Positions 27,528 through 53,059 of a stretch of 64,000 bases of DNA are shown one piece after another (the first letter of the stretch is position 1; each line of letters opens with the position of its first letter). Position numbers and translations under genes: made by a program. The notes beneath the pieces are model-generated. The model made no database searches, was not told the origin of the DNA, and saw only the letters and a list, made by a program, of their open reading frames with translations. Source of the DNA: a virus; the IMG/VR virus record IMGVR_UViG_3300045988_184227, one strand, 5' to 3'.

Positions 27528-27582
27528 TGATATAATATAAGAAAGAATTAAATGCTGAATTAAATTCAGTTGAAAGAAAGGA
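27528..27582 (+). promoter_or_regulatory. Cassette leader: TGaTATAATATAAGAAAG promoter, CTGAATTAAATTCAG palindrome, SD
   Basis: TATAAT at 27531-27536. Palindrome at 27554-27568. GAAAGAAAGGA at 27572-27582. ATG at 27593. Confidence 0.6.
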
Positions 27583-27592
27583 ATTTAAAATA

Positions 27593-28597
27593 ATGGTTAA
27601 AAAGTCTAATGAAATTAAGGATCCTAAAATTGATGTTTTTAAACAATTGCAAACTTTTTCAAAAAAATCTGTTAGTGATGTGGCAACAATTTTGGAAAAC
27701 GACGAATCTTTTATGGGGGCGTTAAATACCTTAATTAAAAATTGTTCTTATTTTTTAAATCTCAAAAACGTTGATACTCAAGAAGGAAAATTGCTTGTTG
27801 AAAATTTAAATTTAGTTCCTGAACTAGAAAAAGCAATTGGTGAAATTACAATTTCATTTGATGAGCGGTTTGTGACAAGAAATAATTTTTACGTTCACGA
27901 AATTAAAAATTTAAAAATCAACATTCCCCAAAATACAAATCCCAATATCAAAACAATAATTACTGAAAGATTTTCAAAAGTAAAAGGTGATCTCTTAGAA
28001 ATTAATGTTTACGATATAAAAAAAAGCCCTTCACAACGAGCAAAAAAAAGTGAAATTGAAAATTTTTTACTTAAGAAAATTAAAAGAGGATTATATCCTT
28101 TTAATATTATTTTCCGTGATAAGTGGATTGAAACAACCACAAAACTTATTCCACTTTTGATTGACAATGATGGACAGCTTTACACAGATAAGAGTTATAA
28201 ATTTCAAAAGGAATGTATTAAATTCGGAAATTTACAAATTGGACTAAATACTTTAGGAACTTACTCTTCAAAATCAAACGGGCTGTTCTTTAATTATTTA
28301 TGTAATAATCTTGATCTTAATAAAAAACTCTTATTAGAATTTTATGCCGAAAAGATAATCAAATACGCAGTTAAAAAAGCCTCGGAAGTTTTAATTTTGA
28401 ACGATCCCTTTACAATTGATGATGTTCGAAAGGGTAACGCTAAACTTGAATTGATTTCTGATGAGAAAATAAAAGAGCGTCTTAAATTTAATCATAACGT
28501 ATTAGGTCTCAAAGATTTCATCAAAAATGAAAAAGATCCAAAACAAATCGAACGATTTGCTGAAATTATTGCAGAGTTGTTAAAGGGTAACGCCTAA
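27593..28597 (+). CDS. Paralog family A member 1 (unknown function)
   Basis: Shares NTNP, YPFNIIF, LLIDNDGQL and C-terminal DPKQIERFAEIIAELL motifs with 29921, 30878, 31944 and 33028. Confidence 0.6.
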   Translation: MVKKSNEIKDPKIDVFKQLQTFSKKSVSDVATILENDESFMGALNTLIKNCSYFLNLKNVDTQEGKLLVENLNLVPELEKAIGEITISFDERFVTRNNFYVHEIKNLKINIPQNTNPNIKTIITERFSKVKGDLLEINVYDIKKSPSQRAKKSEIENFLLKKIKRGLYPFNIIFRDKWIETTTKLIPLLIDNDGQLYTDKSYKFQKECIKFGNLQIGLNTLGTYSSKSNGLFFNYLCNNLDLNKKLLLEFYAEKIIKYAVKKASEVLILNDPFTIDDVRKGNAKLELISDEKIKERLKFNHNVLGLKDFIKNEKDPKQIERFAEIIAELLKGNA

Positions 28598-28680
28598 GAA
28601 AACTGAATTAATTCAGTTTTCTTTTTTTATAATTTTAAAAATAAATTACTGAGCAAGCTCAGAGAAAGAAGGAACCAACA

Positions 28681-29226
28681 ATGACAAAACAATTTAAAGC
28701 TCAAAAGAAATCTATCGAAACATTCGCTCTCCAATATGATGGTCATAACACTGAATTGGTATTGGATTTGTTAAATAAAAACAAATCAGAACCGGCTATT
28801 CTCGAAGAAAAATCAAAAACCATTTTGATTACTAAAACTTTTGGGGATAAAAAACAACCAATTTCATTACCGGTGAATAATTGGATTTTATTAGATGTTG
28901 ACGGAGTATCTTACTGGTCTGTCGATCCTGAAATTTTCTCTAAAACATACGAAAAAGTTGAGGGAGATACTTACAAAAAAGTACCAATTCAGATCGATGT
29001 GATTGAATTTTCTTCTTTAAAAGATGAAGACATCCAGGATGTTCTGAATTTCATTGGAGAAGCAACTCAAACGACTGAATCAGTCAAAGAAGTGGGGTAT
29101 ATTTCAATTGACACTCTAGAAGGCAAGGAAAATATGTTTCAAACAGATATTCTTGCTCGTGGGGTAAAGGGCGAACTTTACCCAATTAAAAAAGAAAACT
29201 TCGATATCATTTTTGAAGTTTTGTAA
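28681..29226 (+). CDS. Hypothetical protein
   Basis: Own leader with CTGAGCAAGCTCAG palindrome plus SD. Terminator at 29238-29268. Confidence 0.5.
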   Translation: MTKQFKAQKKSIETFALQYDGHNTELVLDLLNKNKSEPAILEEKSKTILITKTFGDKKQPISLPVNNWILLDVDGVSYWSVDPEIFSKTYEKVEGDTYKKVPIQIDVIEFSSLKDEDIQDVLNFIGEATQTTESVKEVGYISIDTLEGKENMFQTDILARGVKGELYPIKKENFDIIFEVL

Positions 29227-29328
29227 ATAAAATTGAAGGGCACACGAGTGTCCTTTTATTTTTATTCTATAATTAATTCAGAATTAAAATAAATCCGATC
29301 AACTTAATCGGGGAAAGAAGGAAATAAT

Positions 29329-29826
29329 ATGACAAATTTTGACAAAAAAGCAGCTGTTGATATGCTAAAAAAATCAACATCAGTTCGCAAGTCTATTATG
29401 GCTATGCGTAACCGTGTGGTAAACATCACTAATGATTTTAATAAATCGAAAGTGGTGAAAAATCACACAAACTCACCAATGTTTATCGTCGGTTCTGCCG
29501 CAACCGACACTAATTTTAACATTGGTGAAGATCTTTTAGCAAAAGCGCTAAAAGACTCCAAAGGTTCTCTTGGAACTACAAAGACATTATTTTTAATGTC
29601 TGTTAATGGAGTGATTAAACCAATCACAAATCCATTCTTTGGAGTGGTTCGTGATGGCGATGTTGTTAACCGCCTTCACCCACTACTCGGATCTATTGTT
29701 GTCGACTTCGATAACAAAGATCATTCAAAATTGTTCATCGATTTTGCGTTCAACAAAAACGGAGTTGGTTTCAACGATGTTATTGACGCATTGGCTGACG
29801 ATGTTGTCAAGTTGATGAATAAATAA
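29329..29826 (+). CDS. Hypothetical protein
   Basis: Leader CCGATCAACTTAATCGG palindrome plus SD. Terminator at 29829-29856. Confidence 0.5.
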   Translation: MTNFDKKAAVDMLKKSTSVRKSIMAMRNRVVNITNDFNKSKVVKNHTNSPMFIVGSAATDTNFNIGEDLLAKALKDSKGSLGTTKTLFLMSVNGVIKPITNPFFGVVRDGDVVNRLHPLLGSIVVDFDNKDHSKLFIDFAFNKNGVGFNDVIDALADDVVKLMNK

Positions 29827-29920
29827 AAAACGAGGGGCGGCACCCTCTTTTTTTATTGAAAAAAAGTACGAATTTTGATATAATAAATTAAAAGAATAAA
29901 AAAAGAAAGAAGGTTTTACA

Positions 29921-30787
29921 ATGACAGCAAAACTTAATAAAAAGCTAGAATTTTTACGTAGCGGAAGCGAGCAGGATCTCCTGAAAGAGTTCAAGAAGAA
30001 CAAAGCTCTTATCAAACGCTTGGGTACTGTTAGACAAAAATTCGATGAGGTTTTTGAAGAGGCTAAAGAGCGTGCCCGGTTAGATAACAGTCGAAAGGGA
30101 GATAATGGAATTATTATGTTCCACGACAATCCGGAATTGATTTTTGAATTTCTTGAAACTATCCAAAAAATGAAAATTGAAGTTGATTACCAAAAGGACG
30201 AATTGGTTCTTGGTATGTTTGATACATTCGGATTTAAATCAGAACCAAAAACAAAACACACATCAAACGATTTTGAAATGGAATTTCCCGGATATAGAAT
30301 CAAAAACATAATGATTACATTCCCTGAAAACACAAATCCGAAAATTTCTGACTACATCATCAATATTTCAAAAAATCTTGATGATATTGAAGAAAATTTC
30401 ATTATGGAAGATCGAACTTTTTATTATTCTCCTTTTGAGAAGGATGAAAAAAAACGGGTTTGTGATTCTATTCGATCAATGATTAACAATCAGGGTAATA
30501 TAACATCTTTACTTTACAAATATCGTCCAAGTATTGTAACAGTTAGAATTACTTTATCTGTAGATAAAGATGGTAAATTATTTGTTACAAATAATAAAAA
30601 TCGAACTACTATTTTGGATTTTAATTTGTTTGTCGTGAGTAACGCACCTCATTTTATAGTAAATGCAATCGACCCAGATATCAACAATGATTTCTTTGAC
30701 TATACTTTTAGAAAAATTTCAGAAGATGATTTCTTGTTGAAGTTAATAAAAATCTTCAAAAAAGAAGCTAAAAAAGCTCTCTTCTAA
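29921..30787 (+). CDS. Paralog family A member 2 (divergent, shorter)
   Basis: DNPELIFEFLETIQKMKIEVDY and FPENTNPKISD motifs align to the other family A members. Confidence 0.55.
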   Translation: MTAKLNKKLEFLRSGSEQDLLKEFKKNKALIKRLGTVRQKFDEVFEEAKERARLDNSRKGDNGIIMFHDNPELIFEFLETIQKMKIEVDYQKDELVLGMFDTFGFKSEPKTKHTSNDFEMEFPGYRIKNIMITFPENTNPKISDYIINISKNLDDIEENFIMEDRTFYYSPFEKDEKKRVCDSIRSMINNQGNITSLLYKYRPSIVTVRITLSVDKDGKLFVTNNKNRTTILDFNLFVVSNAPHFIVNAIDPDINNDFFDYTFRKISEDDFLLKLIKIFKKEAKKALF

Positions 30788-30877
30788 GAAGTAGACGCAG
30801 AGATTGAGAGAGTTGATTTTTGTAATCAATTCTCTTTTATAATTAAAGAAAAATATATAGAGAAAGAAGGTGCTCGA

Positions 30878-31837
30878 ATGAAAAGTTCGAAAGATAATAA
30901 CAATGAAGTTTTAGATTTATCTTTGTCACTTAAGAATATTGCAAAAATGAGTGATGAGGATATTTTATCAAAAATAGGTGAGGCTAAAATTGTAAAAGAA
31001 ATCTATGATGAATTTGCAGATTTGTACGCACGATTGAATTACACTGATGATTTTGCAAAGATGTTTGCTGAAAAACCGGAATTAATCTTTGAGTATGAGA
31101 AAGCGATTAAGGATTTAAAATTTGATTTTAATATCGTCGAAAACTCAAGCAATACTTTTGAAGTTGGCAAGTATGTTTCTGTAATATTTCCAGAAAAGAT
31201 TCGTAGAGAATTTAAGGATAAAATTAATACTAAAGTTAAGGAAATTTCCAATGGTTTTAGTTGGGAACATTTTACAGTTTCATTTCGTGTGAACTCGAAA
31301 TATGACTCTGAAGATAAAGTCGTAACCTCTTTATCTAAGTATTTGAAAGAAAAATTATCCTTTACTAACCACATCTATCATTCTGAAAAATCGTCACATC
31401 ACTATCTTAAAACAACTACTGTTTATCTTGATAAAAATAAAATTTTATCTTTGGACTTCAAACATCATCTTATTGTTTTATTAAATTTGAAGATTGGCGT
31501 TAACGATAAAAACAATTTTTTATCTCGTGATAATAAGTTATTTTTAAAAGCGTTTATTAACGATGAAGATGATGGAATTTTATTAAAAGATTATTGTGAT
31601 AAAGTTAGAAAAAAGGCTCTAGAATTAAGCGCAAAATTTTTAATTGAAGAGGATATCTTTTCCTTTAAAGATTTAGAAGCTAGAACAGCCTCATTAGACT
31701 ATTTCACTGATAAAAAAATAAAAAGCGAATTGCGTTACAATAATAACTTCTGTGCTATTAAAGAACTTTTGTATAACGAATCAAAAGAAAATAAAAAACG
31801 TTTCGCTGATATTATTACAGAATTATTGTTAGAATAG
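30878..31837 (+). CDS. Paralog family A member 3
   Basis: EKPELIFEYEKAIKDLKFDF and C-terminal KKRFADIITELLLE. Terminator at 31860-31890. Confidence 0.6.
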   Translation: MKSSKDNNNEVLDLSLSLKNIAKMSDEDILSKIGEAKIVKEIYDEFADLYARLNYTDDFAKMFAEKPELIFEYEKAIKDLKFDFNIVENSSNTFEVGKYVSVIFPEKIRREFKDKINTKVKEISNGFSWEHFTVSFRVNSKYDSEDKVVTSLSKYLKEKLSFTNHIYHSEKSSHHYLKTTTVYLDKNKILSLDFKHHLIVLLNLKIGVNDKNNFLSRDNKLFLKAFINDEDDGILLKDYCDKVRKKALELSAKFLIEEDIFSFKDLEARTASLDYFTDKKIKSELRYNNNFCAIKELLYNESKENKKRFADIITELLLE

Positions 31838-31886
31838 CTGTATTACTTTAAGTTTTTAACAGACCGACATTAATGTCGGTCTGTTC

Positions 31887-31935
31887 TGTTATAATTTAAG
31901 AAATATTTGAAAACTGTAATAGTTTTAGAAAGAAG
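31887..31935 (+). promoter_or_regulatory. Cassette leader: TGtTATAATTTAAGAAAT promoter, AAAACTGTAATAGTTTT palindrome, AGAAAGAAGG SD
   Basis: TATAAT at 31890-31895 with an extended TG. Palindrome at 31909-31925. SD at 31926-31935. ATG at 31944. Confidence 0.6.
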
Positions 31936-31943
31936 GTGAAAAA

Positions 31944-32963
31944 ATGGTAAAGACTACCAAAGATGAAACAAACTTTATCAATTTAGTTAATAGGATGAAG
32001 GTTCTTGCTAATAAGAGTGTTGAAGAAATTTACGAAGACTTACTTGATAACGATCCGTTCAACAATGCTATTGATTATATTTTGACTTGTTTGCGCTCAT
32101 CTTTAAAATCAAATTCAAAAGATAGGGATATTCGTTTATTAGCTAACAATCCTCATCTTATATTAGAATATGACAAGATTGTAAGTGAACTTGAAATTTC
32201 TTGTGATTTTGAAGACGGGCCTTATTCTATCATATCATCTCCCTGGAGTAATGATACTTACGAGACAATTTTAATTAAAAATCTTTTAGTAAGTGATATT
32301 CCATCTGATATCAATAAGAAGATGAGTTTATCGCTAGAAAAACGGATTCAAATTGCAAAGAGAAAGGTTTCTCTTATAAAGAAAATAGATCTCAACATTG
32401 ATCCATATAATAGTGAGACTCCAGAAGAAGTAACCCACAATGACGTTATTTCTAAGGTATCAAAAATGATGAAGGAAGAGTTATCTCCATTCAATATATT
32501 TCTCGGTATTGAAAGGTTTTCTAAACATATTTCTTTATTTGTTGATAGTGATGGCAATTTAGGCAATGTTTTCGAATCCAACACACAAGATTACACAAGG
32601 TTTTGTGATGTTGATGTCTATTTATACCCAAGAAGTCCAGATCTTTTAAAAACATCTTACATCAAAATGTTGGAAGATAGATATGGAGATTCTTATGATG
32701 ACATTGTTATATATTATGCAAAAATAATCAAACTAGAAGCTGAGATGTACCTATCCAAACTTTTGCTTGGTGGTAATAAATTTACTCTTGACAATGTTAA
32801 AACCGGGCAGTACGGGCTTGGTATTCTAAGCGAAGGAAGAATTGAGGATGAGATTCGCAATCGTGTTGCATTTAAACAGCTAAAATCTCTAATCCAGTAC
32901 GAAAATGATCCTGAACAGAGAAAAAGATTTGCAGAGGCTGTCTCCAGATTATTACAAGAATAG
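31944..32963 (+). CDS. Paralog family A member 4
   Basis: NNPHLILEYDKIV, SPFNIFLGI, LFVDSDGNL and DPEQRKRFAEAVSRLLQE. Confidence 0.6.
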   Translation: MVKTTKDETNFINLVNRMKVLANKSVEEIYEDLLDNDPFNNAIDYILTCLRSSLKSNSKDRDIRLLANNPHLILEYDKIVSELEISCDFEDGPYSIISSPWSNDTYETILIKNLLVSDIPSDINKKMSLSLEKRIQIAKRKVSLIKKIDLNIDPYNSETPEEVTHNDVISKVSKMMKEELSPFNIFLGIERFSKHISLFVDSDGNLGNVFESNTQDYTRFCDVDVYLYPRSPDLLKTSYIKMLEDRYGDSYDDIVIYYAKIIKLEAEMYLSKLLLGGNKFTLDNVKTGQYGLGILSEGRIEDEIRNRVAFKQLKSLIQYENDPEQRKRFAEAVSRLLQE

Positions 32964-33027
32964 AGAGGTACCTCTCTATTCTTTTCTTATAATTTAAAAA
33001 AATAAAAATTTTAGAAAGAAGGAAAAA

Positions 33028-34071
33028 ATGGTAATTAAAACAAAAGAAGATGATGATAATCAATTTATTAATCTAATGAATGCTGCAAAAAATCTAGCAA
33101 AAATAGATACATCTGAAATTGTTAAAGTTTTAAGGAAAAATAGAGCATTTAACTTAAAAATGGAAGATATTTTATGCAAAATTAAATCAAATTTCAAAAC
33201 TAATAGTAATGATCGAGATATTCGTTTGTTCGCAAACAATCCTCATCTCATCATTCAGCACGATGAAATAGTAGAAAATTTAGTTTTTGATATTGATTAT
33301 AGATTCTTTGATTCAAAGACAAATTTCAAACCTGGCGGTAAACTTGGTAGAGATCATAGATATCTATTGGAAATTACAAAATTAAATATTACAGGAGTTC
33401 CTGATGATATTAATAAAAAAATGTATCTTTTTTTAACAAAAAACATTAAGAAGCTTGAGGTTGAGACGGCATATATTTTTAATAATCTTATTAACACCAG
33501 AAATCCTAGTGTTGAACTTGATAGAGAAGAAACTATAAATAGAATTTCAAAATATCTTGCAAAAAAACTATCAGTTTTCAATCAATTTAATTTTGATTCA
33601 AATTTAGGTTCTTATACAATAGAATTTTATATTGATTCAAATGGTGAACTATCACTCTATCATACAACTGACTCCTCCAAAGTTGGTCATCACAAAATAA
33701 AGTTATCAACTAAGGATTTTTCAACAAGCTGGATGAATAAAAATTTAATTCAGATGTTAATCGACCCTCGTGGTGAAGGTTATGAAAATATTTTAGAATA
33801 TTATGCGAAAAAAGCAAAGGAAGATTTTGAGGATTATTATAAAAAAATTCTACTTTCCGAAGATTGTTTTGAATTTAAAGACTTTCTATCCCAAAAGCAG
33901 CCGATTTGGCTTATAAGTGATGAGGAATTAAAATCTGGATTGATAGATAATGATTCGATGATGAAATTAATAAATATGTTTCAATTCAAATGTGATCCTG
34001 AACAAAAGAAGAGGGTTATTCGGATTGTCTCTGAAATTTTAGAAGATATGGATAGTATTCTTCCGTTTTAA
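33028..34071 (+). CDS. Paralog family A member 5
   Basis: NNPHLIIQHDEIV, FYIDSNGEL and DPEQKKRVIRIVSEILE. Confidence 0.6.
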   Translation: MVIKTKEDDDNQFINLMNAAKNLAKIDTSEIVKVLRKNRAFNLKMEDILCKIKSNFKTNSNDRDIRLFANNPHLIIQHDEIVENLVFDIDYRFFDSKTNFKPGGKLGRDHRYLLEITKLNITGVPDDINKKMYLFLTKNIKKLEVETAYIFNNLINTRNPSVELDREETINRISKYLAKKLSVFNQFNFDSNLGSYTIEFYIDSNGELSLYHTTDSSKVGHHKIKLSTKDFSTSWMNKNLIQMLIDPRGEGYENILEYYAKKAKEDFEDYYKKILLSEDCFEFKDFLSQKQPIWLISDEELKSGLIDNDSMMKLINMFQFKCDPEQKKRVIRIVSEILEDMDSILPF

Positions 34072-34167
34072 AAGAGAATAGAGAGTTATACCTCTATTCT
34101 TTTTATTTTTCTTATAATTTAATAAAAAATTCCTAGCAAAGCTAGAGATAGAAAGAAGGTAGCTATT

Positions 34168-36162: not shown

Positions 36163-36171
36163 TAAAGAAAA

Positions 36172-36205
36172 AGGGGTTCTAAAACTCCTTTTTTATTTTC
36201 AATAA
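36172..36205 (+). terminator. Rho-independent terminator after the primase-polymerase candidate
   Basis: GGGGTTCTAAAACTCC hairpin followed by TTTTTTATTTT. Confidence 0.6.
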
Positions 36206-36265
36206 AAGTAAAAAAATAACCCCTAACCCAGGGATTATTTTTTGATCTTGCAAGATTTAGTAATC

Positions 36266-36640: not shown

Positions 36641-36759
36641 TTTATTTCTCCTTCTTTACCAGACTTGTCTGGATTTTTTTTAATTATTTGTAAAAATTAT
36701 AGAATCTAAAAGTTAGAGAAAAAAATAAAAAGAGGATCAAACCTCTTTTTATGCTTTCA

Positions 36760-38208: not shown

Positions 38209-38298
38209 TATAAAAATCCTTCTTTTCTAACTGAAATTAATTCAGTAAAATATTTTTCTTAAATTATAAAAGAAGAGTGAATATCTCACTCTTCTTTT

Positions 38299-43271: not shown

Positions 43272-43366
43272 AATATTTTTATAAAGTCGGGTGGGTGATT
43301 CCCATCCGCTTTTATAATTTTAGAAAAAAAACAAACTTTAACAGTTTTAGAAAGAGGGTGCTTGTT

Positions 43367-44149
43367 TTGATTACAACAAACCAAAATCACAATTTGCTTT
43401 TAGAATTAGAAAAACACATTCTTAAGGTTCTAGATCAATATTCAAAATCTGGAGACCAATTTCTTAATTTTCCAGAAAAGGGTGTATTCCCCCCTAATAA
43501 AATGAGAATCGGGGTTGGACATAGAAGCTCCAAAATTGTATTCTGCATTTTTAATGATAAGTTCTACTGTGTAAACTCGGGAGAAATGTTGCCAATTGAT
43601 CAGTTTGTAACGCTTTACGATTCTAGCATTGACTTTCAAAAAGAGATGACAGATATCGTAGTAAACGCCGATGAGTTTGCAAAGATTCTTGTTAATCGTG
43701 TGGCAAATTACAATTTTAATACATTTTATTACGACAAAATATATGGATTTCTTTATGAATATATGATTAAAGGAGAAGCCTCCAAGCGTGAGGCACGTGA
43801 ATTTCTGTATAGATTTTACGAACTTTCAAACGAAGACAGTGCTTACAAACATAGCTTGCAAGATTTCGTCTATAACCTACTTTTCAAAGGATCTGATAGC
43901 CTTGCTGTAAAACATCTGAAATCTAAGCCATACTCTCAGACTTTGAATAAAAATTCAAACTCTGATTTTTCAAAAGTCTTATCTGATTTTGTTACAGATG
44001 AAAATAAACTCCTGGAATTTCTTCAGAGTTTAGGTAAGTCAACTTTTGGGGATTGGGCCTTTGATTACCTGGAAAAAGAATGGGACAATCTATTTGATTT
44101 TGATAAAGAAAAATTCAAAAAATTATTGTCAGATAACAATATCGAATAA
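43367..44149 (+). CDS. Paralog family B member 1 (TTG start)
   Basis: LLLELEKHILKVL...IVFCIFNDKFYCVNSGEMLPIDQFVTLYD aligns with 44245 and 51762. Confidence 0.55.
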   Translation: MITTNQNHNLLLELEKHILKVLDQYSKSGDQFLNFPEKGVFPPNKMRIGVGHRSSKIVFCIFNDKFYCVNSGEMLPIDQFVTLYDSSIDFQKEMTDIVVNADEFAKILVNRVANYNFNTFYYDKIYGFLYEYMIKGEASKREAREFLYRFYELSNEDSAYKHSLQDFVYNLLFKGSDSLAVKHLKSKPYSQTLNKNSNSDFSKVLSDFVTDENKLLEFLQSLGKSTFGDWAFDYLEKEWDNLFDFDKEKFKKLLSDNNIE

Positions 44150-44244
44150 TTCTTTGCGAGAAAATTGGAGGTTTCTTGAAACTTCCAATTTTTATTTTTT
44201 GTGGTATAATTTTTAAAAAAAGAATAAAGAAAGAAGGATTGTTT

Positions 44245-45492
44245 ATGATTCAAACTAATAGTGGTGGTCTTCTGCTGAGATTAGAACAGAAGATTTTGGA
44301 GTCAATTAATCTATACGTCGATTCTGGAGAACAGTTTTTAAATATTCCTGATCGTGAAGTATTCGATGATGAATTTATCAAATTTAAAGCAAAGAATATT
44401 AAAAAAGTAGTATTCTGCTTAGACAACAATAAATTTTATCTTTTATCAAATGGAGGAGCTCTTCCGAGGGATAAGTTTGTTGTGCTTTTTGATGAGGAGA
44501 AATACGGATATGAGATTCCGGACACATTAACCTCAGAACTAATGAAAAATATTTTATTAACGAGATTCTCAAAAGGAAAATTCGGAATTTTTTCTTGTGA
44601 TGATTTTTATCAGTTGCTTTTCAAATATCACAAGTATTGTGATTCGAAGAACTCTGATTTAGATTTGGATGAAAGCAACTTTAGGACAGCTTTGAGACGA
44701 TATAAGTTTTCAAACACAAATAGTGACTTTGAGGTTGAACTCAAGGATTTTGTTTTTGATGTATTTTTTAAAAGTGAAAATAAGTATGCAATTGTCTCTT
44801 TTGAAAAGGGTTATTTGACCACTCAGTTAGAAGATTTTTTCTTCAATTTTATAAATAGTGAAGATAAGTTGTTATTTTTCTTCAAGAATTTAACAAAACC
44901 ACTTGGTAGATCTGAAAAGAAACTTCTATTTTCAATTTCAAAGAAAATTCCTGATTTTAGTTTGTTAAACTTTTACAAAAACTTATTATTAGACTACAAC
45001 GAAATATCTGTTGCGGATTTAATTTCAATTGCTAATGAATTGTGTGATGATTTTTTTAAGTTATTCGAAGATTCAAACTTAAATATTAAGGTAACACCGA
45101 GATTTAACGAGGCTTATTTTGAAAATAATAAGGATGAAAGTTTCGAAATTAATTTTGGGAAACTTGTGGAAGATAAAAGGATTCAGATGATTGGCCTTGA
45201 AAGTTTAGTGAGTAAAATAGAGGATCGATCTAAATATTTAAAAGAATACAGAGATTCTTTACAAAAAAGATTAGATAGAGGTAATCTTGATACATCGAAA
45301 TTTAAGGATGATTTTTCTAGATTTAATACAGAATACATTGAATTTAATGTTGGGTTAAAAACTTTAATTCTATTTAAGAAGCAATTATCCGACAAGGAAA
45401 GTGAATCTTTAGTTGAATCGTTAAAAAAAATTAGTGTGAATCTGGCTGGAACTGGGTTTTCAGGCCAATTTGCTCAAATTCACGAAAATTAA
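44245..45492 (+). CDS. Paralog family B member 2
   Basis: LLLRLEQKILESI...VVFCLDNNKFYLLSNGGALPRDKFVVLFDEE. RBS AGAAAGAAGG. Start refined from the ORF track. Confidence 0.6.
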   Translation: MIQTNSGGLLLRLEQKILESINLYVDSGEQFLNIPDREVFDDEFIKFKAKNIKKVVFCLDNNKFYLLSNGGALPRDKFVVLFDEEKYGYEIPDTLTSELMKNILLTRFSKGKFGIFSCDDFYQLLFKYHKYCDSKNSDLDLDESNFRTALRRYKFSNTNSDFEVELKDFVFDVFFKSENKYAIVSFEKGYLTTQLEDFFFNFINSEDKLLFFFKNLTKPLGRSEKKLLFSISKKIPDFSLLNFYKNLLLDYNEISVADLISIANELCDDFFKLFEDSNLNIKVTPRFNEAYFENNKDESFEINFGKLVEDKRIQMIGLESLVSKIEDRSKYLKEYRDSLQKRLDRGNLDTSKFKDDFSRFNTEYIEFNVGLKTLILFKKQLSDKESESLVESLKKISVNLAGTGFSGQFAQIHEN

Positions 45493-45493
45493 A

Positions 45494-45521
45494 AAAGAGG
45501 TTTTAAAGCCTCTTTTTTGTT
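45494..45521. terminator. Bidirectional terminator between convergent genes
   Basis: AAAAGAGGTTTTAAAGCCTCTTTT palindromic hairpin with A/T runs on both sides. Confidence 0.65.
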
Positions 45522-47258
45522 TTAGATTTTTGCAAGATAGATTTTTAGGATTGTCTTCAAAACTGAAATTGATTCAAACTCGTCGTACAGACCAGACTCG
45601 ATACTTTCGCTGAATAAGCCAATCTTCTTCTTAAATTGTTCAGCTGTCTCACCGTCTGGAATTAGAACAGTCAGATCATCCTTGTATTGATTCAGAAAAT
45701 GTTCGAATAGTTTAACACGATCATCGGTTTCGTCGACTTTTACAGTGATTAGATTTATCAAATCTTCAAATTTGAATCCAAAAACTACAGGTTCTGAGAA
45801 AGACAATTCCTTGCCGAAATTAATCATCTGAAGTATGCGTTTTTCATAATCATCAAATTTCTTGATAAGAATTGTTGATTCGTACTTCAAATTTTTTTCA
45901 ACCTTAAATCTGCTCACAACCTTCAAAGACTCGTCCTTGTATCTTGATTTGATTTTGATAACAAATAAATCACCGAGATCAACACTTTTAGAACTGTAGT
46001 AGTAGTATCGTTCTTTTTCTTTAGTGGCTGAACCTTCCTCAAACGCAATATATTCTGATAGAAGATCATCACGATTGTCAATTTTCGATTCAATGAAATC
46101 TAGTACGTGATTAGAAATCTTGTTGAATGATGATTTTAGTAATGATTCTGGACCAACAGTACAATAAAAACTTCTAGATTTTTTAGATGTGTGATTCGAT
46201 AGATGATGATAACCATTGTCAAGGATATACAATAAAAACTTCATACCGTACCCAGGACTACGTTTTGACAGTTCCTTGAATAAATACAGAATGAAATTAT
46301 CAGTATCTTCCAACACCTCTTCAAATTGCATACCGAGAGATTCCAGTTTTTGATTTAACTTTTCTTCATCATCAAAGCTGTCGTAAAGATCTTGTTTTGT
46401 ATACAAACTATACAAATATTTAGAAATATAGTTCAATCTCAACTTTGAGTTGTTATATTTATCTTTGGAATCGATTTCAGGAATCAAATTATCAATAAAG
46501 TTATCCCGTTCGTTCTTTACGAAAGATTTTACGTACTCTTCAAAAGGTTTTGTGTAAGAGAGAAGATTCTGATTCATTATTTCAAAACCATCTACTGATA
46601 ATTTTAAAGCGTGTGTCCACTCTTCTGAAGTAGATTCAGTGAAAATTAGAGTTTTAAGGGCCTCATCACGCTCACTTTCGCTAAGAATGCAAAGCGGAAC
46701 TGGGAATCTACCTGAACGAACCCAGTGTTCAGTTGGTTTATCTAAGAAATTATTAGAATAGGTAGACTCGTACTCTAGTAATTGTTGGTAAAGTTCTTTT
46801 AGGTTTTTTACCACAAATTTTTTAGCCGCACTCTCAACAAACTTTTTCAATGCGTCCTTATCATCAATCTTTGGCTCAATATATCCAAAATTATTTTTGT
46901 ATAAAGACAAACCAAAAGCGTCTTTCAATAAGGATGAACCTTTATTTTTGTTGAAGTTTATAGTACCAATCAGAATAGCTTGTTGCTCTAACTTACAACG
47001 TGAAATACCATTCATCCTAAATATAAATTTTTCCGTATCAAACAAGTACCAAACGTCGATCTTTTTGAACATTAACGTTTTCAAAGATCCTTCTTCCTTG
47101 TTAAGATAGTTACCCTCATCTTTGAAATTGTAGATTGCAAAGCATAGATCATCTACATTTTCTTTGCTAAATTTGAAGTCAGATTTTGATACACGCTCAA
47201 AAGCACTCTTAATCTTTTTAATAGTCTCCATCTTGCTGGATCCTGATGTTTTAATCAT
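45522..47258 (-). CDS. Paralog family C member 1
   Basis: VWYLFDTEKF near the N-terminus. C-terminal IESGLYDEFESIS. CTATTTAAATAG palindrome plus SD leader. Confidence 0.6.
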   Translation of the reverse strand: MIKTSGSSKMETIKKIKSAFERVSKSDFKFSKENVDDLCFAIYNFKDEGNYLNKEEGSLKTLMFKKIDVWYLFDTEKFIFRMNGISRCKLEQQAILIGTINFNKNKGSSLLKDAFGLSLYKNNFGYIEPKIDDKDALKKFVESAAKKFVVKNLKELYQQLLEYESTYSNNFLDKPTEHWVRSGRFPVPLCILSESERDEALKTLIFTESTSEEWTHALKLSVDGFEIMNQNLLSYTKPFEEYVKSFVKNERDNFIDNLIPEIDSKDKYNNSKLRLNYISKYLYSLYTKQDLYDSFDDEEKLNQKLESLGMQFEEVLEDTDNFILYLFKELSKRSPGYGMKFLLYILDNGYHHLSNHTSKKSRSFYCTVGPESLLKSSFNKISNHVLDFIESKIDNRDDLLSEYIAFEEGSATKEKERYYYYSSKSVDLGDLFVIKIKSRYKDESLKVVSRFKVEKNLKYESTILIKKFDDYEKRILQMINFGKELSFSEPVVFGFKFEDLINLITVKVDETDDRVKLFEHFLNQYKDDLTVLIPDGETAEQFKKKIGLFSESIESGLYDEFESISVLKTILKIYLAKI

Positions 47259-47369
47259 TTTATTTTCCTTCTTTCTATTTAAATAGTTTTATTTTTATTC
47301 TCTTAAATTATAACAGATTAGATAATAAAATCTTTAATAAAAAAAGAAGAGTTTGAACTCTCCCTTTTA

Positions 47370-47900
47370 CTATCGAGTAATAATATTTGGAAACTCACCG
47401 TTATTCAAAAAATTCTGATAAATTGACAACAACTTTTTCTTAATAAAACTTTTAAACTTGTAATTTATAAATCTATCAAGATAATAATCGTTAACTTCCA
47501 ACTTTCGATTTTCTGATCCGCTTAACAGGCTTTTTCCAAAAATCGCTCTAAACTGTCGAGTTTCACGACTTGAATTTAAGTGCAACTCACCCAATAAAAT
47601 AGGTTGACTCACACACAAATCTTCAGTAAATTTTGGAAGATAATCAATATCGTATTTGGAGAAGATTTCAAATGTGTTTGTTTCACAGAAGTAATAAATA
47701 AGAAAAACAGGAAGCTTCAATTCACTTACAGATCCAGCAGTAACACATACATAAGGATATTGATTTAGCTTCTTAATAGATAATCTAACAACATCCATAA
47801 ATTGTTCTGAAAGTGGATATTCTCCTTTTTGGATAATATCTTTTATTTGCTTCATCTGTTCAAACTGAGAAGATTCTTCTGTTTTTGTGTTTAAAACCAT
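47370..47900 (-). CDS. Hypothetical protein
   Basis: Leader CTGAATTTATTTCAG plus SD at 47901-47930. Confidence 0.5.
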   Translation of the reverse strand: MVLNTKTEESSQFEQMKQIKDIIQKGEYPLSEQFMDVVRLSIKKLNQYPYVCVTAGSVSELKLPVFLIYYFCETNTFEIFSKYDIDYLPKFTEDLCVSQPILLGELHLNSSRETRQFRAIFGKSLLSGSENRKLEVNDYYLDRFINYKFKSFIKKKLLSIYQNFLNNGEFPNIITR

Positions 47901-47975
47901 ATTTCCCTCTTTCTACTGAAATAAATTCAGATTTTTTAATTTCTTAAATTATAAAAGAGGAGGGAGGATACCCCC

Positions 47976-49781
47976 TCAGTTTTTCATCAATTCTAAAACA
48001 AGGTTTACAAATTCAAGTAAAATTTTAGGTTTTTCAAACTCGTCATAAATTCCATTCTCGATTCCGATCCTCAAATAATCAATCTGTTTTGAAAACAATT
48101 CTGGTTCTGAATTTTCAAGAATAACTTTCACTTTTCCAGGATTATTATCTTTAATTTCTTTGATTATTTTGATGTGATCCATAGTAGATTGATAATTAAA
48201 ATCAACTTCGTCAATTAACAACTTAAGGATTGTTTCAAACTCAAGTCTTATAAAAAGAGAACCACCTATCTTAACCGGAATATTATTGGATATGGATTTT
48301 AAAATCGCAAGATCCACGGTTGAGTGACCAAACGTAATAGAATTATTTTTACTTGTAAGGTTATACACCAAATCAATGTCAAGGTTAAATTCGCTTAATT
48401 TATCTAGCTCTTTATCCTTGATAAATAAGTCCAGCTCTTCCAAAATCAACTTTTTATTGTATGCGTCGCCAAGAAATACAGAACCTCTCCCAACCTTACC
48501 AATAGTAAGCCCATTTTGAAAATCATAAACTAAACGTTCAAGTTCTTTTTTGTTGAAATCTTTTGTTGCGGATTCAAGTAGCTTACTGAATAAAAGCTGA
48601 ACAAATTTTCCTTTCGTTCCTGTAGAGAAAAAGAATGATGTTGACAAATTTAAAGTACTCATTGTCGAGTTCATAAATCGTCCACCTGCAAGTTCACCTG
48701 TAATTTCCGCCAATCCTAAAACAACATTTTCTGCATTACTATTGAATGAAGATCTAGCTATCTCTCCTAATAATTCAATAAAAGCAGTTTGATTAGAATA
48801 ATACTTGCTATCTTCAAAATAAAGATTTTCACAACATACACTAGAACCTTTTAGGTAGAAAACACCAGCTTTTTCAGTAAAGAAATATTTTCTAAACCAA
48901 TTACAGATAAGTCCTAGAAGTTCACTTCGTGTAGACATAGTTTTTAAGCCGGTGTAACTATTTGCTTGAACAAACATATTAACGATATCAGTTTTAATAT
49001 CCGATAAATATTGGTTAAATTCTTCACGAAAAGTTGAGAGATAATCCCAAGACTCAAATTCAACAACCTTTACTTCTCCGTCATAGTCAGATGTTGATTT
49101 CAACGGGTCTGCTGTTTCAAAAAATAAATATCTATACATCCACTCTCGTTCGTTCTTTTTTAGCAACGATAATGGTGTATTAAAAATAAATTTAATATCT
49201 CTTTTAGGTGATGTAAGTAAACCTTCAGTACCTAGAACACCACTATGAAGAAAAGTTTCATCTTCTAAAACCAGTCGTTCGCAAACTAATTTAAGTTTTT
49301 CACGAACTCTTTTTGTCAAATATTCAACTATAAATTTCTTAGCTGAATCCTCATCGGTTAATTGAAGACCCTTCTTTTTCATACCCCAAGAATCATTGTA
49401 TTCGATTAATGAATAGCACTCTATAAGTTTTTTAGATTTTCTAGATTGATTTAGATTGAAAGTACCTAAATATAGGACATCTTTATCTAAAATGTTCTGA
49501 TGTTTAATATCATCCAACCTTTCACCTTTGATTAAAATGATCTTATCTTCTAAGAAACTATACCAAATTTGAAATTTGCTAAAATTAACTCCATCTAGTG
49601 AATTTTCGCTTGGATACCAAGGGGAAGTGAATCCTTTTAGTAATTTAAGTGAAAAATCTATATTATCTTCAGATACTGTAATGTTTTTGCCCTTAATCAA
49701 GGATTTGATTTTATCAATTCTTTCCCAACGAACCGGTTCCAATTCTCGTTCTGTTGAAATCGAATTACTTTTTACTACCAT
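47976..49781 (-). CDS. Paralog family C member 2
   Basis: IWYSFLEDKI. C-terminal IGIENGIYDEFEKPK. Leader CTGAATTTAATTCAG plus SD at 49782-49815. Confidence 0.6.
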   Translation of the reverse strand: MVVKSNSISTERELEPVRWERIDKIKSLIKGKNITVSEDNIDFSLKLLKGFTSPWYPSENSLDGVNFSKFQIWYSFLEDKIILIKGERLDDIKHQNILDKDVLYLGTFNLNQSRKSKKLIECYSLIEYNDSWGMKKKGLQLTDEDSAKKFIVEYLTKRVREKLKLVCERLVLEDETFLHSGVLGTEGLLTSPKRDIKFIFNTPLSLLKKNEREWMYRYLFFETADPLKSTSDYDGEVKVVEFESWDYLSTFREEFNQYLSDIKTDIVNMFVQANSYTGLKTMSTRSELLGLICNWFRKYFFTEKAGVFYLKGSSVCCENLYFEDSKYYSNQTAFIELLGEIARSSFNSNAENVVLGLAEITGELAGGRFMNSTMSTLNLSTSFFFSTGTKGKFVQLLFSKLLESATKDFNKKELERLVYDFQNGLTIGKVGRGSVFLGDAYNKKLILEELDLFIKDKELDKLSEFNLDIDLVYNLTSKNNSITFGHSTVDLAILKSISNNIPVKIGGSLFIRLEFETILKLLIDEVDFNYQSTMDHIKIIKEIKDNNPGKVKVILENSEPELFSKQIDYLRIGIENGIYDEFEKPKILLEFVNLVLELMKN

Positions 49782-49885
49782 TATTTTTCCTTCTTTCTAA
49801 CTGAATTAAATTCAGAATTATTATTTCTTAAATTATAATAGCAAGAAGTTGTCTCCTGAAATAAAAAAAGTAAAAGGAAAACCTT

Positions 49886-51631
49886 TTACTTTTTAAGATG
49901 ATCCGCCATTTTGACGATGAAATTGGAAAGGTATTTTGCATTAGGAAAGTTAGATAATGCTCCATTTTCAATACCGTATTTAAAAAACTCAAATACTTTT
50001 TGATAATCACCATCCTCTTCTTCTGTGAAGTTGATATCTAGATCATCAAAATTGTTTTTTGTTACTGCCGCAAAAGTTTCTAAACATTTTTGGCTCTGTC
50101 TAAAACGAAAATCTGATGTATCAAATAAAATAGATGTAAAACCAGATATGGATAAAGAAACCTTCTGTTTTTCTTTGAATTTGATATTCTGCCCCAACTC
50201 TTTTGCAAAACAAATTGCCCACTCATCGATTCTAGAAGATAAACTACTCACATTAAGAAATTCAAATTCAATCACGCCAATGTAATTTAAGGCTTTTAGA
50301 GGTAAACCGACCCTTTTGTGAAGAGTCCCCTTAATCATTTTGAACGTTTCAATATTTCTATTGACATAAAAACCAAATGATGTGCTCTCTTTATCAAAAA
50401 TGCAAATCTCATTCAAAAATTCTTCTTTATTAGATTCAATTAATTTTCCAAAAAACAAATCTATAAAATGTTCTGTTATAAACATTTTAAGTTTTTCTCG
50501 AATAGATTCCATCTCGGAGGTTAAATTATTAGCCTTAATATCCAATATTTTTGAAGCAAGCACATTCATCGTAGATTCATCAAAATTCTCGGATAAGAAT
50601 TTCATTAACGTATATAACAACGTTCCCCGATTTTTATCGAAATTGTGTGATCCAATCTGTTTCAAAAAATCAGTAAACAATAACAACTGATCAGAAAGAT
50701 GTTCATCTTTAATATCGTTCTTAATTTTAAAAACGGAATCATCCTGACAATATTCCATTACTTTAGAATTTAAAAATAATTCTTCGTAAGTATTAAAGAT
50801 AAAGTCTTTTGTTATTTTTAACAAAGAAAATTTGTCATTATACCCTTTACCATCATCAACAAAAGAATCAATCATTGTTGAACGAATAGTTTCTAAGAAA
50901 GTATCAACTTCTTCCTGAAATGAAGAGGTGTAATTTCTGTCTTCTGTATAGGATAAACTAAATTTTCCGCCAAACTGCAATTTATTAATATTTTTCCTTA
51001 TTAATAAATTGTAAACAGATTCACGTTCTTCCTTAGTCATTAAAATTAGTGGAGTATTATATAAATAATAGACGCTGGTGCCACCCAAGTTGTATATTTC
51101 TTTTAAAGGAACTAGCGTTCTTTCCTCATTCAATTCGGAATAGAATGTTGAGTTCTCCAATAATAACTTTTGAGACAAATCTTTCAACTGTTTTGTTGTA
51201 AAAGTAATAAGAAGTTTTTGTACATACTTCTCAACTAGCTCTTCATCTTTAACAAATAAAGTGTAGTCTTTAATTTCATAAAGTTCAACGAAACCCTTAT
51301 TGTTTCTTTTGCCATCGATTTCTAATTTCCCAATCATTAAAAGATCCAAAGATAAATACTTAGGGTCGGGATAAGAATAACCGTAACAATCCTCTGCGAA
51401 AACAAAAAACTTCTTCTCCTTAAAAGAGTACCAAACGTAATGAGTTTTAAATCTAATATTCCGGCACGGGTAAGTATAAGGTCCACTAGATACCTTTTGA
51501 TTAAACCGTTTAACCAAATTTTCGACACATTCCTGGTCAAAATTGTAATTCTTATCTTTAAGCAATTTAGACAACTCTTTAATCGCAAGAACACGGCGAT
51601 CATCTTTGATTAAAGTTGAATTTACTACCAT
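49886..51631 (-). CDS. Paralog family C member 3
   Basis: VWYSFKEKKF. C-terminal YGIENGALSNF. Confidence 0.6.
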   Translation of the reverse strand: MVVNSTLIKDDRRVLAIKELSKLLKDKNYNFDQECVENLVKRFNQKVSSGPYTYPCRNIRFKTHYVWYSFKEKKFFVFAEDCYGYSYPDPKYLSLDLLMIGKLEIDGKRNNKGFVELYEIKDYTLFVKDEELVEKYVQKLLITFTTKQLKDLSQKLLLENSTFYSELNEERTLVPLKEIYNLGGTSVYYLYNTPLILMTKEERESVYNLLIRKNINKLQFGGKFSLSYTEDRNYTSSFQEEVDTFLETIRSTMIDSFVDDGKGYNDKFSLLKITKDFIFNTYEELFLNSKVMEYCQDDSVFKIKNDIKDEHLSDQLLLFTDFLKQIGSHNFDKNRGTLLYTLMKFLSENFDESTMNVLASKILDIKANNLTSEMESIREKLKMFITEHFIDLFFGKLIESNKEEFLNEICIFDKESTSFGFYVNRNIETFKMIKGTLHKRVGLPLKALNYIGVIEFEFLNVSSLSSRIDEWAICFAKELGQNIKFKEKQKVSLSISGFTSILFDTSDFRFRQSQKCLETFAAVTKNNFDDLDINFTEEEDGDYQKVFEFFKYGIENGALSNFPNAKYLSNFIVKMADHLKK

Positions 51632-51761
51632 TTTTTCCTTCTTTCTAGCTGTAATAATAACAGCGAAATATTATTTCTTTAATTATAACAGACTTGAATT
51701 TGCTTTTATAATTAAAGAAATAATAAATCTGAATTTATTTCAGTAGAAAGAAGGTATTAAA

Positions 51762-53057: not shown

Positions 53058-53059
53058 AT

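Follow-up and report, generated by a model that had tools for sequence, protein, structure and literature searches.

A recurrent dyad motif in the leaders and genes of a probable Inocle-type giant element, a candidate binding site for an oligomerising protein

Background

Why should one 15-bp palindrome recur along a stretch of mobile DNA, both in the leaders of unrelated genes and inside other genes? The question is raised by 64,000 nucleotides of IMG/VR record IMGVR_UViG_3300045988_184227, referred to here as the window, which means the whole stretch at its full length. An earlier note, made from the sequence letters, had listed copies of the palindrome CTGAAT-WWW-ATTCAG in the window and had proposed either an operator or a mobile hairpin. 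As described below, the palindrome is one form of a degenerate motif, CTG-N9-CAG, which is in excess over the whole element, is conserved at silent codon positions, occurs in phased arrays and has a set place in a promoter/leader cassette. The motif is a candidate binding site for an oligomerising DNA-binding protein.

The element behind the window is probably an Inocle-type giant plasmid-like element of oral Streptococcus. Inocles, described in 2025, are plasmid-like elements of giant size in oral Streptococcus from saliva, circular, about 250-370 kb in length and about 32% G+C, which carry tRNAs, insertion sequence (IS) elements, sortase/LPXTG-type genes and a marker gene, InoC, with a replication-relaxation domain; their description mentions neither promoters nor DNA motifs (PMC12340149). 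The G+C content of the window is about 33%, its relatives are metagenome contigs of 250-392 kb, of which the BNJS-BNJV contigs are from human saliva, sortase and G5/SSSPR domains are present, and the window has a TnpB-type transposase. The assignment is based on the agreement in size, G+C content, saliva habitat, tRNAs, insertion sequences and sortase/cell-wall genes. InoC was not among the annotated open reading frames (ORFs) of the window, and no search with an InoC sequence was made. A DNA search found no DNA-level relative of the window among GenBank phages or cultured phages or plasmids, and the best protein identity to cultured phages and plasmids was at most 37%.

Sequences and comparisons

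ORFs were called mechanically. Relatives were collected by searching for the cassette pattern described below, which returned one IMG/VR contig and 119 metagenome stretches (individual loci are given as L numbers). Window and relatives together form a pooled set of 1.02 Mb, in which about a quarter or less of any one 250-390 kb element is sampled. The same pattern was compared with 185,579 species genomes and matched five scattered contigs of metagenome-assembled genomes, which is the chance level, with no prophage or host copies. Orthologues among the relatives were aligned at 65-93% identity. An Rfam scan of the window returned tRNAs only, and a literature search on CTG-N9-CAG found nothing relevant.

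Recurrence of the palindrome

Exact copies of the palindrome start at 9233, 27555, 39415 and 49801 (four copies, against 0.00 expected from 100 shuffles), and copies with one mismatch start at 1726, 20401, 26820, 34244, 38231, 46625, 47916, 51729 and 56795. These 13 matches at one mismatch or less compare with a mean of 0.36 over 180 palindromes of equal composition, so that the recurrence is beyond chance, as the earlier note had held; most of its positions were right, two had to be moved (27554 to 27555 and 39420 to 39415), and the exact copy at 9233 had been overlooked. The copy at 28603-28616 is a 14-bp variant, CTGAATTAATTCAG, and forms the tip of a terminator with a 12-bp stem, which agrees with the report of one copy within a terminator. 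The frame CTGAA-N5-TTCAG occurs 14 times in the window, where 0.23 are expected from 5-mer counts, and all other spacings from 0 to 30 occur at most once.

Six leader copies, as had been reported, lie 1-3 nt 5' of AGAAAGAAGG-like boxes in front of unrelated genes, two of the boxes being degenerate (AGAAAGTATT at 1726 and TTGAAAGAAAGG at 27555). These six copies are listed here, followed by a further leader hairpin in the same slot and by the terminator.

27555..27569, + strand: exact leader copy CTGAATTAAATTCAG before the family-A gene 27593-28597, with TATAATATAAGAAA upstream at 27531-27544 and TTGAAAGAAAGG downstream at 27570-27581
49801..49815, - strand: exact leader copy, sense CTGAATTTAATTCAG, before gene 47976-49781, with the -10 and TTAAGAAA at 49837-49824 and TTAGAAAGAAGG at 49800-49789
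38231..38245, - strand: leader copy, sense CTGAATTAATTTCAG, before gene 36760-38208, with TATAATTTAAGAAA at 38268-38255 and TTAGAAAAGAAGG at 38230-38218
47916..47930, - strand: leader copy, sense CTGAATTTATTTCAG, before gene 47370-47900, with TATAATTTAAGAAA at 47953-47940 and TAGAAAGAGGG at 47915-47905
51729..51743, + strand: leader copy CTGAATTTATTTCAG before the family-C gene 51762-53057, with TATAATTAAAGAAA at 51707-51720 and TAGAAAGAAGG at 51744-51754
1726..1740, - strand: copy, sense CTGAATTTATTTCAG, between tRNA-Ala and the Panacea-domain gene 1269-1700, next to the degenerate box ATAGAAAGTATT and with no TATAAT upstream; a partner site 27 bp off (1753-1767) lies 2 nt from the 3' end of tRNA-Ala
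51649..51663, - strand: leader hairpin, sense GCTGTTATTATTACAGC, of gene 49886-51631, a CTG-N9-CAG with a different interior
28596..28623, + strand: intrinsic terminator of gene 27593-28597, with a 12-bp stem and the tip CTGAATTAATTCAG at 28603-28616, followed by the T-run TTTTTTATAAT and the TATAAT of the next cassette

Element-wide excess of CTG-N9-CAG

The motif CTG-N9-CAG occurs 60 times in the window, compared with 4.82 in shuffled sequence and 10-18 at other in-phase spacings, and 987 times in the pooled set, compared with 148-275 at other in-phase spacings. For the relatives this amounts to 987 per Mb, where control spacings give about 185. Since about 12 window sites are expected from the other in-phase spacings, some of the 60 are background. 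Seven of the 60 sites are in cassette leaders and about 46 are inside ORFs of all kinds, including such unrelated genes as those for topoisomerase II, a RecD-like protein, a DNA polymerase and a Lon-like protein. Together with eight of the 14 CTGAA-N5-TTCAG copies, which are likewise outside leaders and inside ORFs, these numbers overturn the description of the copies as mostly flush against ribosome-binding sites.

The excess is specific in sequence and in clade. Neither CAG-N9-CTG, CTG-N9-CTG and CAG-N9-CAG nor single-base variants were enriched, apart from CTG..AAG and CTT..CAG, which were weakly enriched (about 2-fold), and the inner TGAA-N5-TTCA without the outer C/G was not enriched; the outer CTG..CAG is the essential part of the motif. 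The consensus is tCTGaAat-w-atTtCAGa. In 713 non-leader sites CTG is fixed, A5 is present in 73% and T11 in 69%, and the centre is rich in W. All 48 related loci of at least 9 kb were enriched and six unrelated loci were not, and Streptococcus phage SM1 had no clear excess of CTG-N9-CAG (10 versus 5.95). The density is about one site per kb with a flat positional profile within ORFs, and no enrichment of sites at gene ends was seen. Enrichment was found in all three reading frames, of which nCT Gnn nnn nnn nCA Gnn is the commonest and the two rarer ones are even more strongly enriched relative to controls.

Silent-site conservation, symmetry and phasing

In the orthologue alignments all six core bases were kept in 75.6% of comparisons, versus 34-58% at control spacings. 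The commonest frame places motif positions 2, 5, 8, 11 and 14 at wobble positions, and at the third codon positions T2 was retained in 89.5% and A14 in 90.8% of cases, versus 49-79% in controls. Silent-site identity was 0.85-0.92 at positions 2, 5, 8, 11 and 14, versus 0.65-0.75 at wobble positions outside, so that the footprint is exactly 15 bp; the control spacing gave a flat profile. On this comparative evidence purifying selection acts on the intragenic sites, and they are functional. The centre is as constrained as the arms, which fits read-out of an AT-rich centre better than the loop of a hairpin.

Pairing between positions 4 and 12 of intragenic sites was Watson-Crick in 293 cases versus 229 expected, with 63 G.U and 73 A.C, which is almost no covariation, and many of these sites are unable to fold as hairpins. 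The half-sites thus appear to be independent in coding copies, which resemble double-stranded DNA sites and not hairpins. An asymmetry of G.U against A.C, considered as a means of telling RNA from DNA, was uninformative (6 versus 0 in leaders, 63 versus 73 in genes), the minimum free energies (MFE) of the two strands being equal.

Distances between site starts have maxima at 27-33 bp, 56-60 bp, about 87 bp and about 117 bp, where about three pairs are expected per 3-bp bin, and these distances are not multiples of 3. The period of about 29 bp would place neighbouring sites on one face of the helix. Phased pairs and arrays in the window start at 39415/39442, 43983/44012, 14095/14123 and 60368/60394/60426.

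Three other accounts of the intragenic sites were rejected. Chance or codon usage is contradicted by the dependence of the excess on spacing 9 and on the order CTG..CAG, by its presence in all frames and by the silent-site conservation, and a peptide motif such as S-E-x-x-S-E by the enrichment of all frames, the silent-site conservation and array spacings that are not multiples of 3. A CodY box, which we take to be AATTTTCWGAAAATT, would through independent TTCWGAA cores enrich all four CWG combinations, and only CTG..CAG is enriched.

Promoter/leader cassette and hairpin slot

The cassette consists, in order, of an upstream terminator, TATAAT-TWAAGAAA, about 10 nt, an optional hairpin, the box (T)AGAAAGAAGG, 3-9 nt and the start codon, and where the palindrome is present TATAAT-TWAAGAAA is followed by about 10 nt, the palindrome, (T)TAGAAAGAAGG and ATG. 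At least 20 cassettes were found in the window and 506 distinct ones in the relatives. The cassette has no -35 element, the terminator being located at the -35 position, and canonical TTGACA-17-TATAAT promoters without TWAAGAAA are present elsewhere in the window (for example before 12196-12696 and 59657-60271). Core genes (8-27 kb) have AAGGAG/GGAGG, and cassette genes (27.5-61.7 kb) have the box AGAAAGAAGG, with one mismatch to the usual anti-Shine-Dalgarno (anti-SD) sequence. Cassette genes are a separate expression class, and the two signal classes suggest that a sigma factor, an RNA polymerase or a mode of translation is dedicated to it.

The spacer from the -10 to the box is bimodal, with about 18 or about 33 nt in the 506 cassettes. 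A hairpin of 13-19 nt, mostly 15 or 17, fills the slot in 312 of them (62%) and ends 0-2 nt before the box. The mean MFE of the spacer is -3.0 kcal/mol, versus -0.55 kcal/mol for shuffled sequence, and is the same for sense and antisense. Slot stems are extremely diverse, G+C-rich ones included, and the slot appears to be selected for pairing and not for one sequence, because orthologous leaders swap, lose or compensatorily change their hairpins. The palindrome had been described as conserved in sequence, unlike the variable leader palindromes; in the relatives, the slot instead holds CTGAA/TTCAG, CTGGA/TCCAG, an unrelated hairpin or nothing, even in orthologous leaders. For example, the 27555 copy is kept in the L037 orthologue and missing through a clean indel from that of L066, where the window has its 49801 copy the orthologues of L109, L095 and L027 carry a hairpin of unrelated sequence, ATCTC..GAGAT, and orthologues of the 47916 copy read CTGAAA..TTTCAG and CTGAAG..TTTCAG, with the change at position 6. 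The terminator tip at 28603 is CCGAAT..ATTCGG in L037, a compensatory change by which the structure is kept and the sequence is not.

CTG-N9-CAG is present in the slot of 135 of the 506 cassettes, with A-T at stem position 5 in 118 and covariation at position 4 (A-T 62, G-C 57). Relative to the element-wide density of about one site per kb, sites in the slot of about 15 nt are estimated to be enriched roughly 15-fold. Stem position 6 is mostly unpaired, which gives the RNA form a 5-bp stem and a 5-nt loop. Hairpins of the CTGAA type are weak, with free energies of -2.7 to -3.7 kcal/mol, and at z-scores of -0.2 to -1.1 the leader folds are not better than shuffles. The density of internal sites is 0.47 per kb in genes with a CTG-class leader versus 0.68-0.91, in counts that orthologues make non-independent; this deficit links the leader and intragenic populations.

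Two known types of hairpin were compared with the slot and rejected. In an N4-type hairpin promoter, transcription would start 11 nt past the loop and would cut the SD-like box, and a conserved -10 is present upstream. No feature in support of a boxB/nut-like antiterminator hairpin, or of a mimic of a T-arm or anticodon arm, was found, conserved loop purines and a TTC loop both being missing.

Several further observations concern the cassettes. A second family of slot hairpins, NNNCTGTAATAGNNN, was seen in L026, L028, L051, L060, L117 and the window (31920-31934), with about 30 copies among the 312 hairpins; its CT-GWAAT-AG core is conserved and its outer stem covaries (AAG/CTT, GAA/TTC, TGA/TCA, AAA/TTT). 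When the slot hairpins at 29295-29311, 34132-34146, 36659-36672 and 28649-28662 are read antisense, a T-rich run follows, the complement of the A-rich leader, and such hairpins, which score as intrinsic terminators, could stop antisense transcription just short of the promoter. The cassette genes 27593, 31944, 33028, 38968, 47370, 47976, 49886 and 56706 are otherwise unrelated, and many begin M-V-(V/K/L/I)-(K/N)-(S/T); other cassette genes start MK(S/R/Q/E)(S/T), so that conservation seems to extend from the cassette into the first codons. At 38218-38290 and 47905-47975 the pyrimidine-rich 3' side and tail of the upstream terminator (CTCTTCTTT and CCTCCTCTTT, respectively) complement the box of the same cassette (AAAGAAGG and AAAGAGGG), the variant base included. 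They may mask the box in read-through transcripts, or this may be a coincidence.

Individual sites and gene content of the window

The remaining sites are as follows.

9233..9247: exact palindrome inside the ORF 8202-11396 for a 1064-aa AAA/Lon-like protein, where it reads P-E-L-N-S-E
39415..39456: exact palindrome at 39415-39429 and a second site at 39442-39456, 27 bp apart, inside ORF 38968-39525; L092 has CTGGAT at the site matching 39415
26820..26834: intragenic CTGAATTTATTTCAG in ORF 26516-27466, not retained in L037
20401..20415: CTGAATTTTTTTCAG within the topoisomerase II gene 18949-20919
34244..34258: CTGAACTTGATTCAG within the DNA-polymerase-like gene 34168-36162
46625..46639: CTGAAGTAGATTCAG within gene 45522-47258
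58061..58075: CTGAAATAACTTCAG within the final codons of the flotillin-like gene 58056-59540
6838..6852: CTGAAATTATTTCAG between tRNA genes
60368..60440: array of three CTG-N9-CAG sites starting at 60368, 60394 and 60426 (spacings of 26 and 32 bp), of which the 60368 site is the tip of a terminator-like hairpin (60365-60393) at the 3' end of the thymidylate-kinase gene
1726..63612: the 60 CTG-N9-CAG sites of the window, with starts beyond those above at 2834, 4638, 4668, 6229, 7200, 8228, 9821, 14095, 14123, 14189, 16153, 16409, 17036, 17393, 17537, 18505, 19057, 19350, 22709 and 24925
1726..63612, continued: starts at 28560, 31179, 31806, 34930, 35879, 37926, 38610, 42334, 42589, 43983, 44012, 44275, 45656, 52579, 53371, 54172, 56795, 59168, 62638 and 63598

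The starts at 4668 and 7200 fall within tRNA genes, and sites adjoin the 3' ends of tRNA-Ala (1753-1767) and tRNA-Val (4638-4652). The palindrome or another CTG-N9-CAG also forms the tip of longer terminator hairpins with differing outer stems in L026 (9775 and 10793), L031 (10538 and 11557), L087 (7215) and the window (28596-28623 and 60365-60393); the motif is accommodated in 3' structures too.

An array of 23 tRNA genes, including three for tRNA-Met and four for tRNA-Ser, occupies 332-8028 on the - strand and is interspersed with small ORFs, among them the Panacea-domain gene 1269-1700 and an SPFH/Band-7 gene (2679-3530). Genes for replication and repair code for topoisomerase II, a RecD-like helicase, DNA polymerase, a Lon-like AAA protein, a Toprim/DUF3991 primase-like protein and thymidylate and guanylate kinases, and other domains in the window are SPFH/flotillin, PspC, the G5/SSSPR surface-protein domains and a TnpB-type transposase. 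The remaining genes are a long run of orphans in three very divergent paralogous families (23-31% identical), and most cassette-driven proteins have no Pfam or PHROG match. The TnpB/IS605-OrfB-type gene 39858-41150 (- strand) has DNA counterparts, 78-89% identical, at no fewer than seven other loci of the related elements (L022, L060, L067, L073, L075, L107 and L117) and is a multi-copy insertion sequence within this clade. Genes 41445-43271 (+ strand) and 61976-63814 (- strand) are inverted paralogues of about 610 aa, 74% identical and 19 kb apart, the second of which carries G5 and SSSPR-51 surface-protein domains.

Interpretation

We read CTG-N9-CAG, with a probability of about 0.5, as the binding site of a symmetric protein that would bind as a dimer and assemble into higher oligomers, the leader palindromes being its best version. 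A dimeric, oligomerising binder is predicted from the bipartite symmetric site, the AT-rich centre, the independent half-sites, the exact 15-bp conservation and the helical phasing, and for sites that recur about once per kb along the entire element the most economical role would be architectural or silencing. A nucleoid-associated or silencer-type protein could wrap or coat the element, which would fit the occurrence of sites in leaders and genes as well as at terminator tips and beside tRNAs, and the frequent tandem arrays, with a spacing of about three helical turns, would suit an oligomer on DNA. At a leader site, 16-20 nt past the -10 and 2 nt before the SD-like box, the bound protein would block promoter clearance or elongation, and the site would act as an operator. 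The leader slot, free of coding constraint and favouring palindromes, would be the cheapest place for a perfect site, and a site placed there would double as a weak hairpin of the 5' untranslated region (5'-UTR) beside the SD sequence; the two functions could be reconciled if a palindrome is required in the slot on separate grounds, whether in RNA or in single-stranded DNA. Protein binding, repression upon binding and the role of the slot itself are what we infer from these patterns. The operator for a dimeric regulator that the earlier note had proposed is in line with this as regards a symmetric binder and the position in leaders, and its restriction to leaders is lost, since most copies are intragenic. 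Its translational repressor occluding the SD, a candidate only, would not account for the approximately 750 intragenic sites in the relatives.

Several results weigh against a binding site of this kind. The small helix-turn-helix (HTH) or other regulator gene that had been sought was not found: no candidate binder, whether of HTH or Lrp type, was present among the window ORFs, a tblastn search of 1 Mb with E. coli Lrp as query gave no homologue, in a set which samples a fraction of each 250-390 kb element, and the 85 conserved small proteins of the relatives gave, as a binder candidate, a single HTH_17/MerR match. The binder could be a host protein. Stem pair 4 covaries strongly in the 68 distinct leader copies (GC 36, AU 27, GU 3, other 1), which recognition of half-sites does not predict and which needs either a hairpin requirement in the slot or the spread of two alleles through recombination. 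The distance of the leader site from the SD-like box (a gap of 2 nt in 98 of 132) is held more strictly than that from the -10 (16-20 nt), which suggests an RNA or translation function over an operator, and orthologous leaders lose the site or exchange it for another hairpin. The relatives, moreover, were collected through the cassette pattern and are related to one another, so that the counts are not of independent events.

A role confined to RNA would make the palindrome one allele of a generic 5'-UTR stem-loop abutting the SD-like box, with an incidental sequence and with the intragenic sites as a separate phenomenon; it might serve in SD exposure, in stacking on the SD/anti-SD helix, as a block to 5'-exonuclease or endonuclease together with the ribosome, or in antisense termination. 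The bimodal spacer, the position of the 312 hairpins against the box and their folding energy are as such a role would have them, as are the dozens of unrelated stems accepted by the slot, G+C-rich ones included, the swapping or loss of hairpins between orthologous leaders, the covariation of the leader stems, the tight gap to the box and the scoring of several slot hairpins as terminators on the antisense strand. We consider it unlikely, for it gives no reason for the CTG..CAG with A5/T11 that about 40% of slot hairpins have in common, nor for the 5-fold enrichment and silent-site conservation of the same 15-mer frame inside genes, where folding is impossible. The CTGAA-type hairpins are also marginal, with leader folds no better than shuffles, the equal folding of sense and antisense leaves no strand-specific RNA signal, and the lower number of internal sites in genes with CTG-class leaders ties the two populations together.

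The intragenic sites would be accommodated if the motif were acted on by an enzyme, as a target of a methyltransferase or other modification, as an entry site for nicking, topoisomerase or primase, or as a replication or repair signal needed about once per kb. A bipartite palindrome with a fixed spacer, spread evenly within genes at about one per kb and conserved at silent sites, is compatible with such a use, and the window encodes topoisomerase II, a Toprim/DUF3991 primase-like protein and a RecD-like helicase. This is less probable still, given that restriction-modification targets are normally depleted and not enriched in mobile DNA, that known primase sites are trinucleotides with no need of a 15-bp frame, that 29-bp phasing and a constrained AT-rich centre are typical of cooperative binders and not of enzymes that act and leave, and that the estimated 15-fold concentration in a promoter-proximal slot suggests a link to expression. 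Spread by recombination, with the palindrome a passenger of a mobile promoter/leader cassette copied by gene conversion or modular shuffling and not selected for its sequence, is as a whole explanation the most doubtful of the three. It cannot account for the intragenic sites or the silent-site footprint, it can explain how leader copies spread and not what the motif is for, and the spacer just upstream varies between copies in which the palindrome is kept, so that the palindrome is better conserved than its neighbourhood. As a mechanism of spread, a mobile cassette has some support: cassette flanks are near-identical (TATAATTWAAGAAA, TAGAAAGAAGG) in front of proteins that are 23-31% identical or unrelated, hairpins come and go by clean indels, and CTGAA alleles are found alongside CTGGA alleles in one element, mixed forms being few. 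In addition, window 29258-30860 (genes 29329-29826 and 29921-30787) is replaced in L066 (3150-3530) by one 100-aa gene with both breakpoints in cassettes; the junction is chimeric, the cassette of the L066 gene matching that of window gene 29921 and its first codons (MKSSKDN) those of window gene 30878. The clean indels and this cassette-bounded replacement are the indirect support for the mobile hairpin module that had also been suggested.

If the binding-site reading is carried further, dyads in silent codon positions and leaders may form an element-wide address code, read by an oligomeric protein of the element or the host that wraps, silences or marks as self the 250-390 kb replicon, with leader sites as both operators and RNA hairpins. 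We put this forward tentatively, as a possibility with the odds against it. If true, it would amount to a stealth system built on a sequence-specific nucleoid protein, a kind not described for Gram-positive plasmids or phages.

Significance

Inocles were described only in 2025, a large proportion of people carry them, and there is as yet no account of how their several hundred mostly orphan genes are controlled. Three handles are now available, namely a defined promoter/leader cassette, a hairpin slot beside the ribosome-binding site and a selected, element-wide dyad motif. The motif provides a simple sequence signature by which such elements can be spotted in short-read data and a bait with which its reader protein could be isolated. 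Should that reader be a silencer, the motif would suggest a way in which an element of 350 kb keeps down the cost that it imposes on its host. The motif is also an unusually clear case of a predicted protein-binding code overlaid on coding sequence in a mobile element.

Comparison with known systems

Cluster A mycobacteriophages have stoperators, which are repressor sites distributed genome-wide, including within transcription units, and are thought to silence by blocking elongation; some overlap promoters. They are asymmetric 13-14-mers oriented with transcription, number 20-35 per genome and belong to temperate phages with a known repressor. The sites described here are likewise spread through the genome and located inside transcription units (60 in 64 kb, about 46 of them in ORFs) as well as in seven cassette leaders. 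They differ in being palindromic, free of orientation and far more numerous. As to a cognate repressor, the window has no repressor-like gene, and the relatives gave one HTH_17/MerR protein.

Cluster O mycobacteriophages have a 17-bp dyad, TGTTCGG-NNN-CCGAACA, with invariant arms, in 30-34 copies per 70 kb; the copies are intergenic and near gene starts, with about one third intragenic, are not tied to promoters, and are of unknown function, a dimeric DNA-binding protein having been predicted (PMC4351075). Both systems have a short palindrome with a 3-bp centre in many copies across a mobile genome. The sequences are unrelated, and here only CTG/CAG and A5/T11 are fixed in a degenerate interior, sites occur at about one per kb over 250-390 kb and in 29-bp-phased arrays, and about a quarter of the cassette leaders are occupied.

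In architecture, arrays of Lrp-type sites appear to be the nearest. Lrp/AsnC (feast/famine) proteins bind semi-palindromic sites with an AT-rich centre and two major-groove half-sites; these are degenerate and clustered, lie on one face two or three helical turns apart and wrap DNA on an oligomer, and some members of the family are global regulators (PMC2995911). The present motif resembles them as a 15-bp, AT-centred site of two halves in helically phased clusters of degenerate sites, and differs in that a protein of the Lrp/AsnC family, with HTH and RAM domain, was not found in the sampled DNA. We take the FL11 consensus to be TGAAAWWWTTTCA, presumably equal to the inner 13 bp of the motif, and E. 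coli Lrp to prefer YAG-N9-CTR; the outer CTG/CAG, required here, is absent from both of these assumed consensus sequences.

As for the cassette and its slot, the PeSL cassettes of T4-type phages comprise a promoter, a stem-loop and an SD sequence before orphan genes, which are separate transcription units, each ended by a terminator; in one subclass the stem-loop comes after the -10, and the cassettes mediate gene insertion, deletion and replacement, the stem-loop being speculated to be a protein target (PMC2839356, PMC4122927). The cassettes described here are likewise composites of promoter, stem-loop and SD-like box before many orphan genes. One two-gene replacement and one chimeric cassette-gene junction, with breakpoints in cassettes, may reflect an exchange of genes of this kind. 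PeSLs, however, have full sigma-70 promoters (-35 and -10), where only the -10 and TWAAGAAA are present here, their stem-loops are G/C-rich terminators, and no genome-wide intragenic motif has been described for them. The SAS of Cluster K mycobacteriophages is a box containing the ribosome-binding site a few bases before the start codon in a subset of genes, with unknown function and a proposed link to translation, and in about half of the cases (ESAS) a 17-bp inverted repeat lies just upstream, conserved in sequence with a 4-13-bp spacer and kept across orthologues (PMC3203893). The box (T)AGAAAGAAGG, 3-9 nt before the start codon in a subset of genes, is comparable to the SAS. Unlike the ESAS, slot hairpins are 13-19 nt long, free in sequence and gained or lost between orthologues, and their commonest filler is the element-wide motif.

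By these comparisons the motif lacks at least one defining feature of each family and belongs in kind with repeated dyad sites, here candidate sites, for protein binding in mobile genomes. What sets it apart is how dense and how degenerate its sites are, the footprint that they leave at silent positions of coding sequence and their phased arrays. The nearest described relatives of the motif appear to be the Cluster O dyad repeats and the Cluster A stoperators, and those of the cassette and the slot the PeSL cassettes and the SAS/ESAS.

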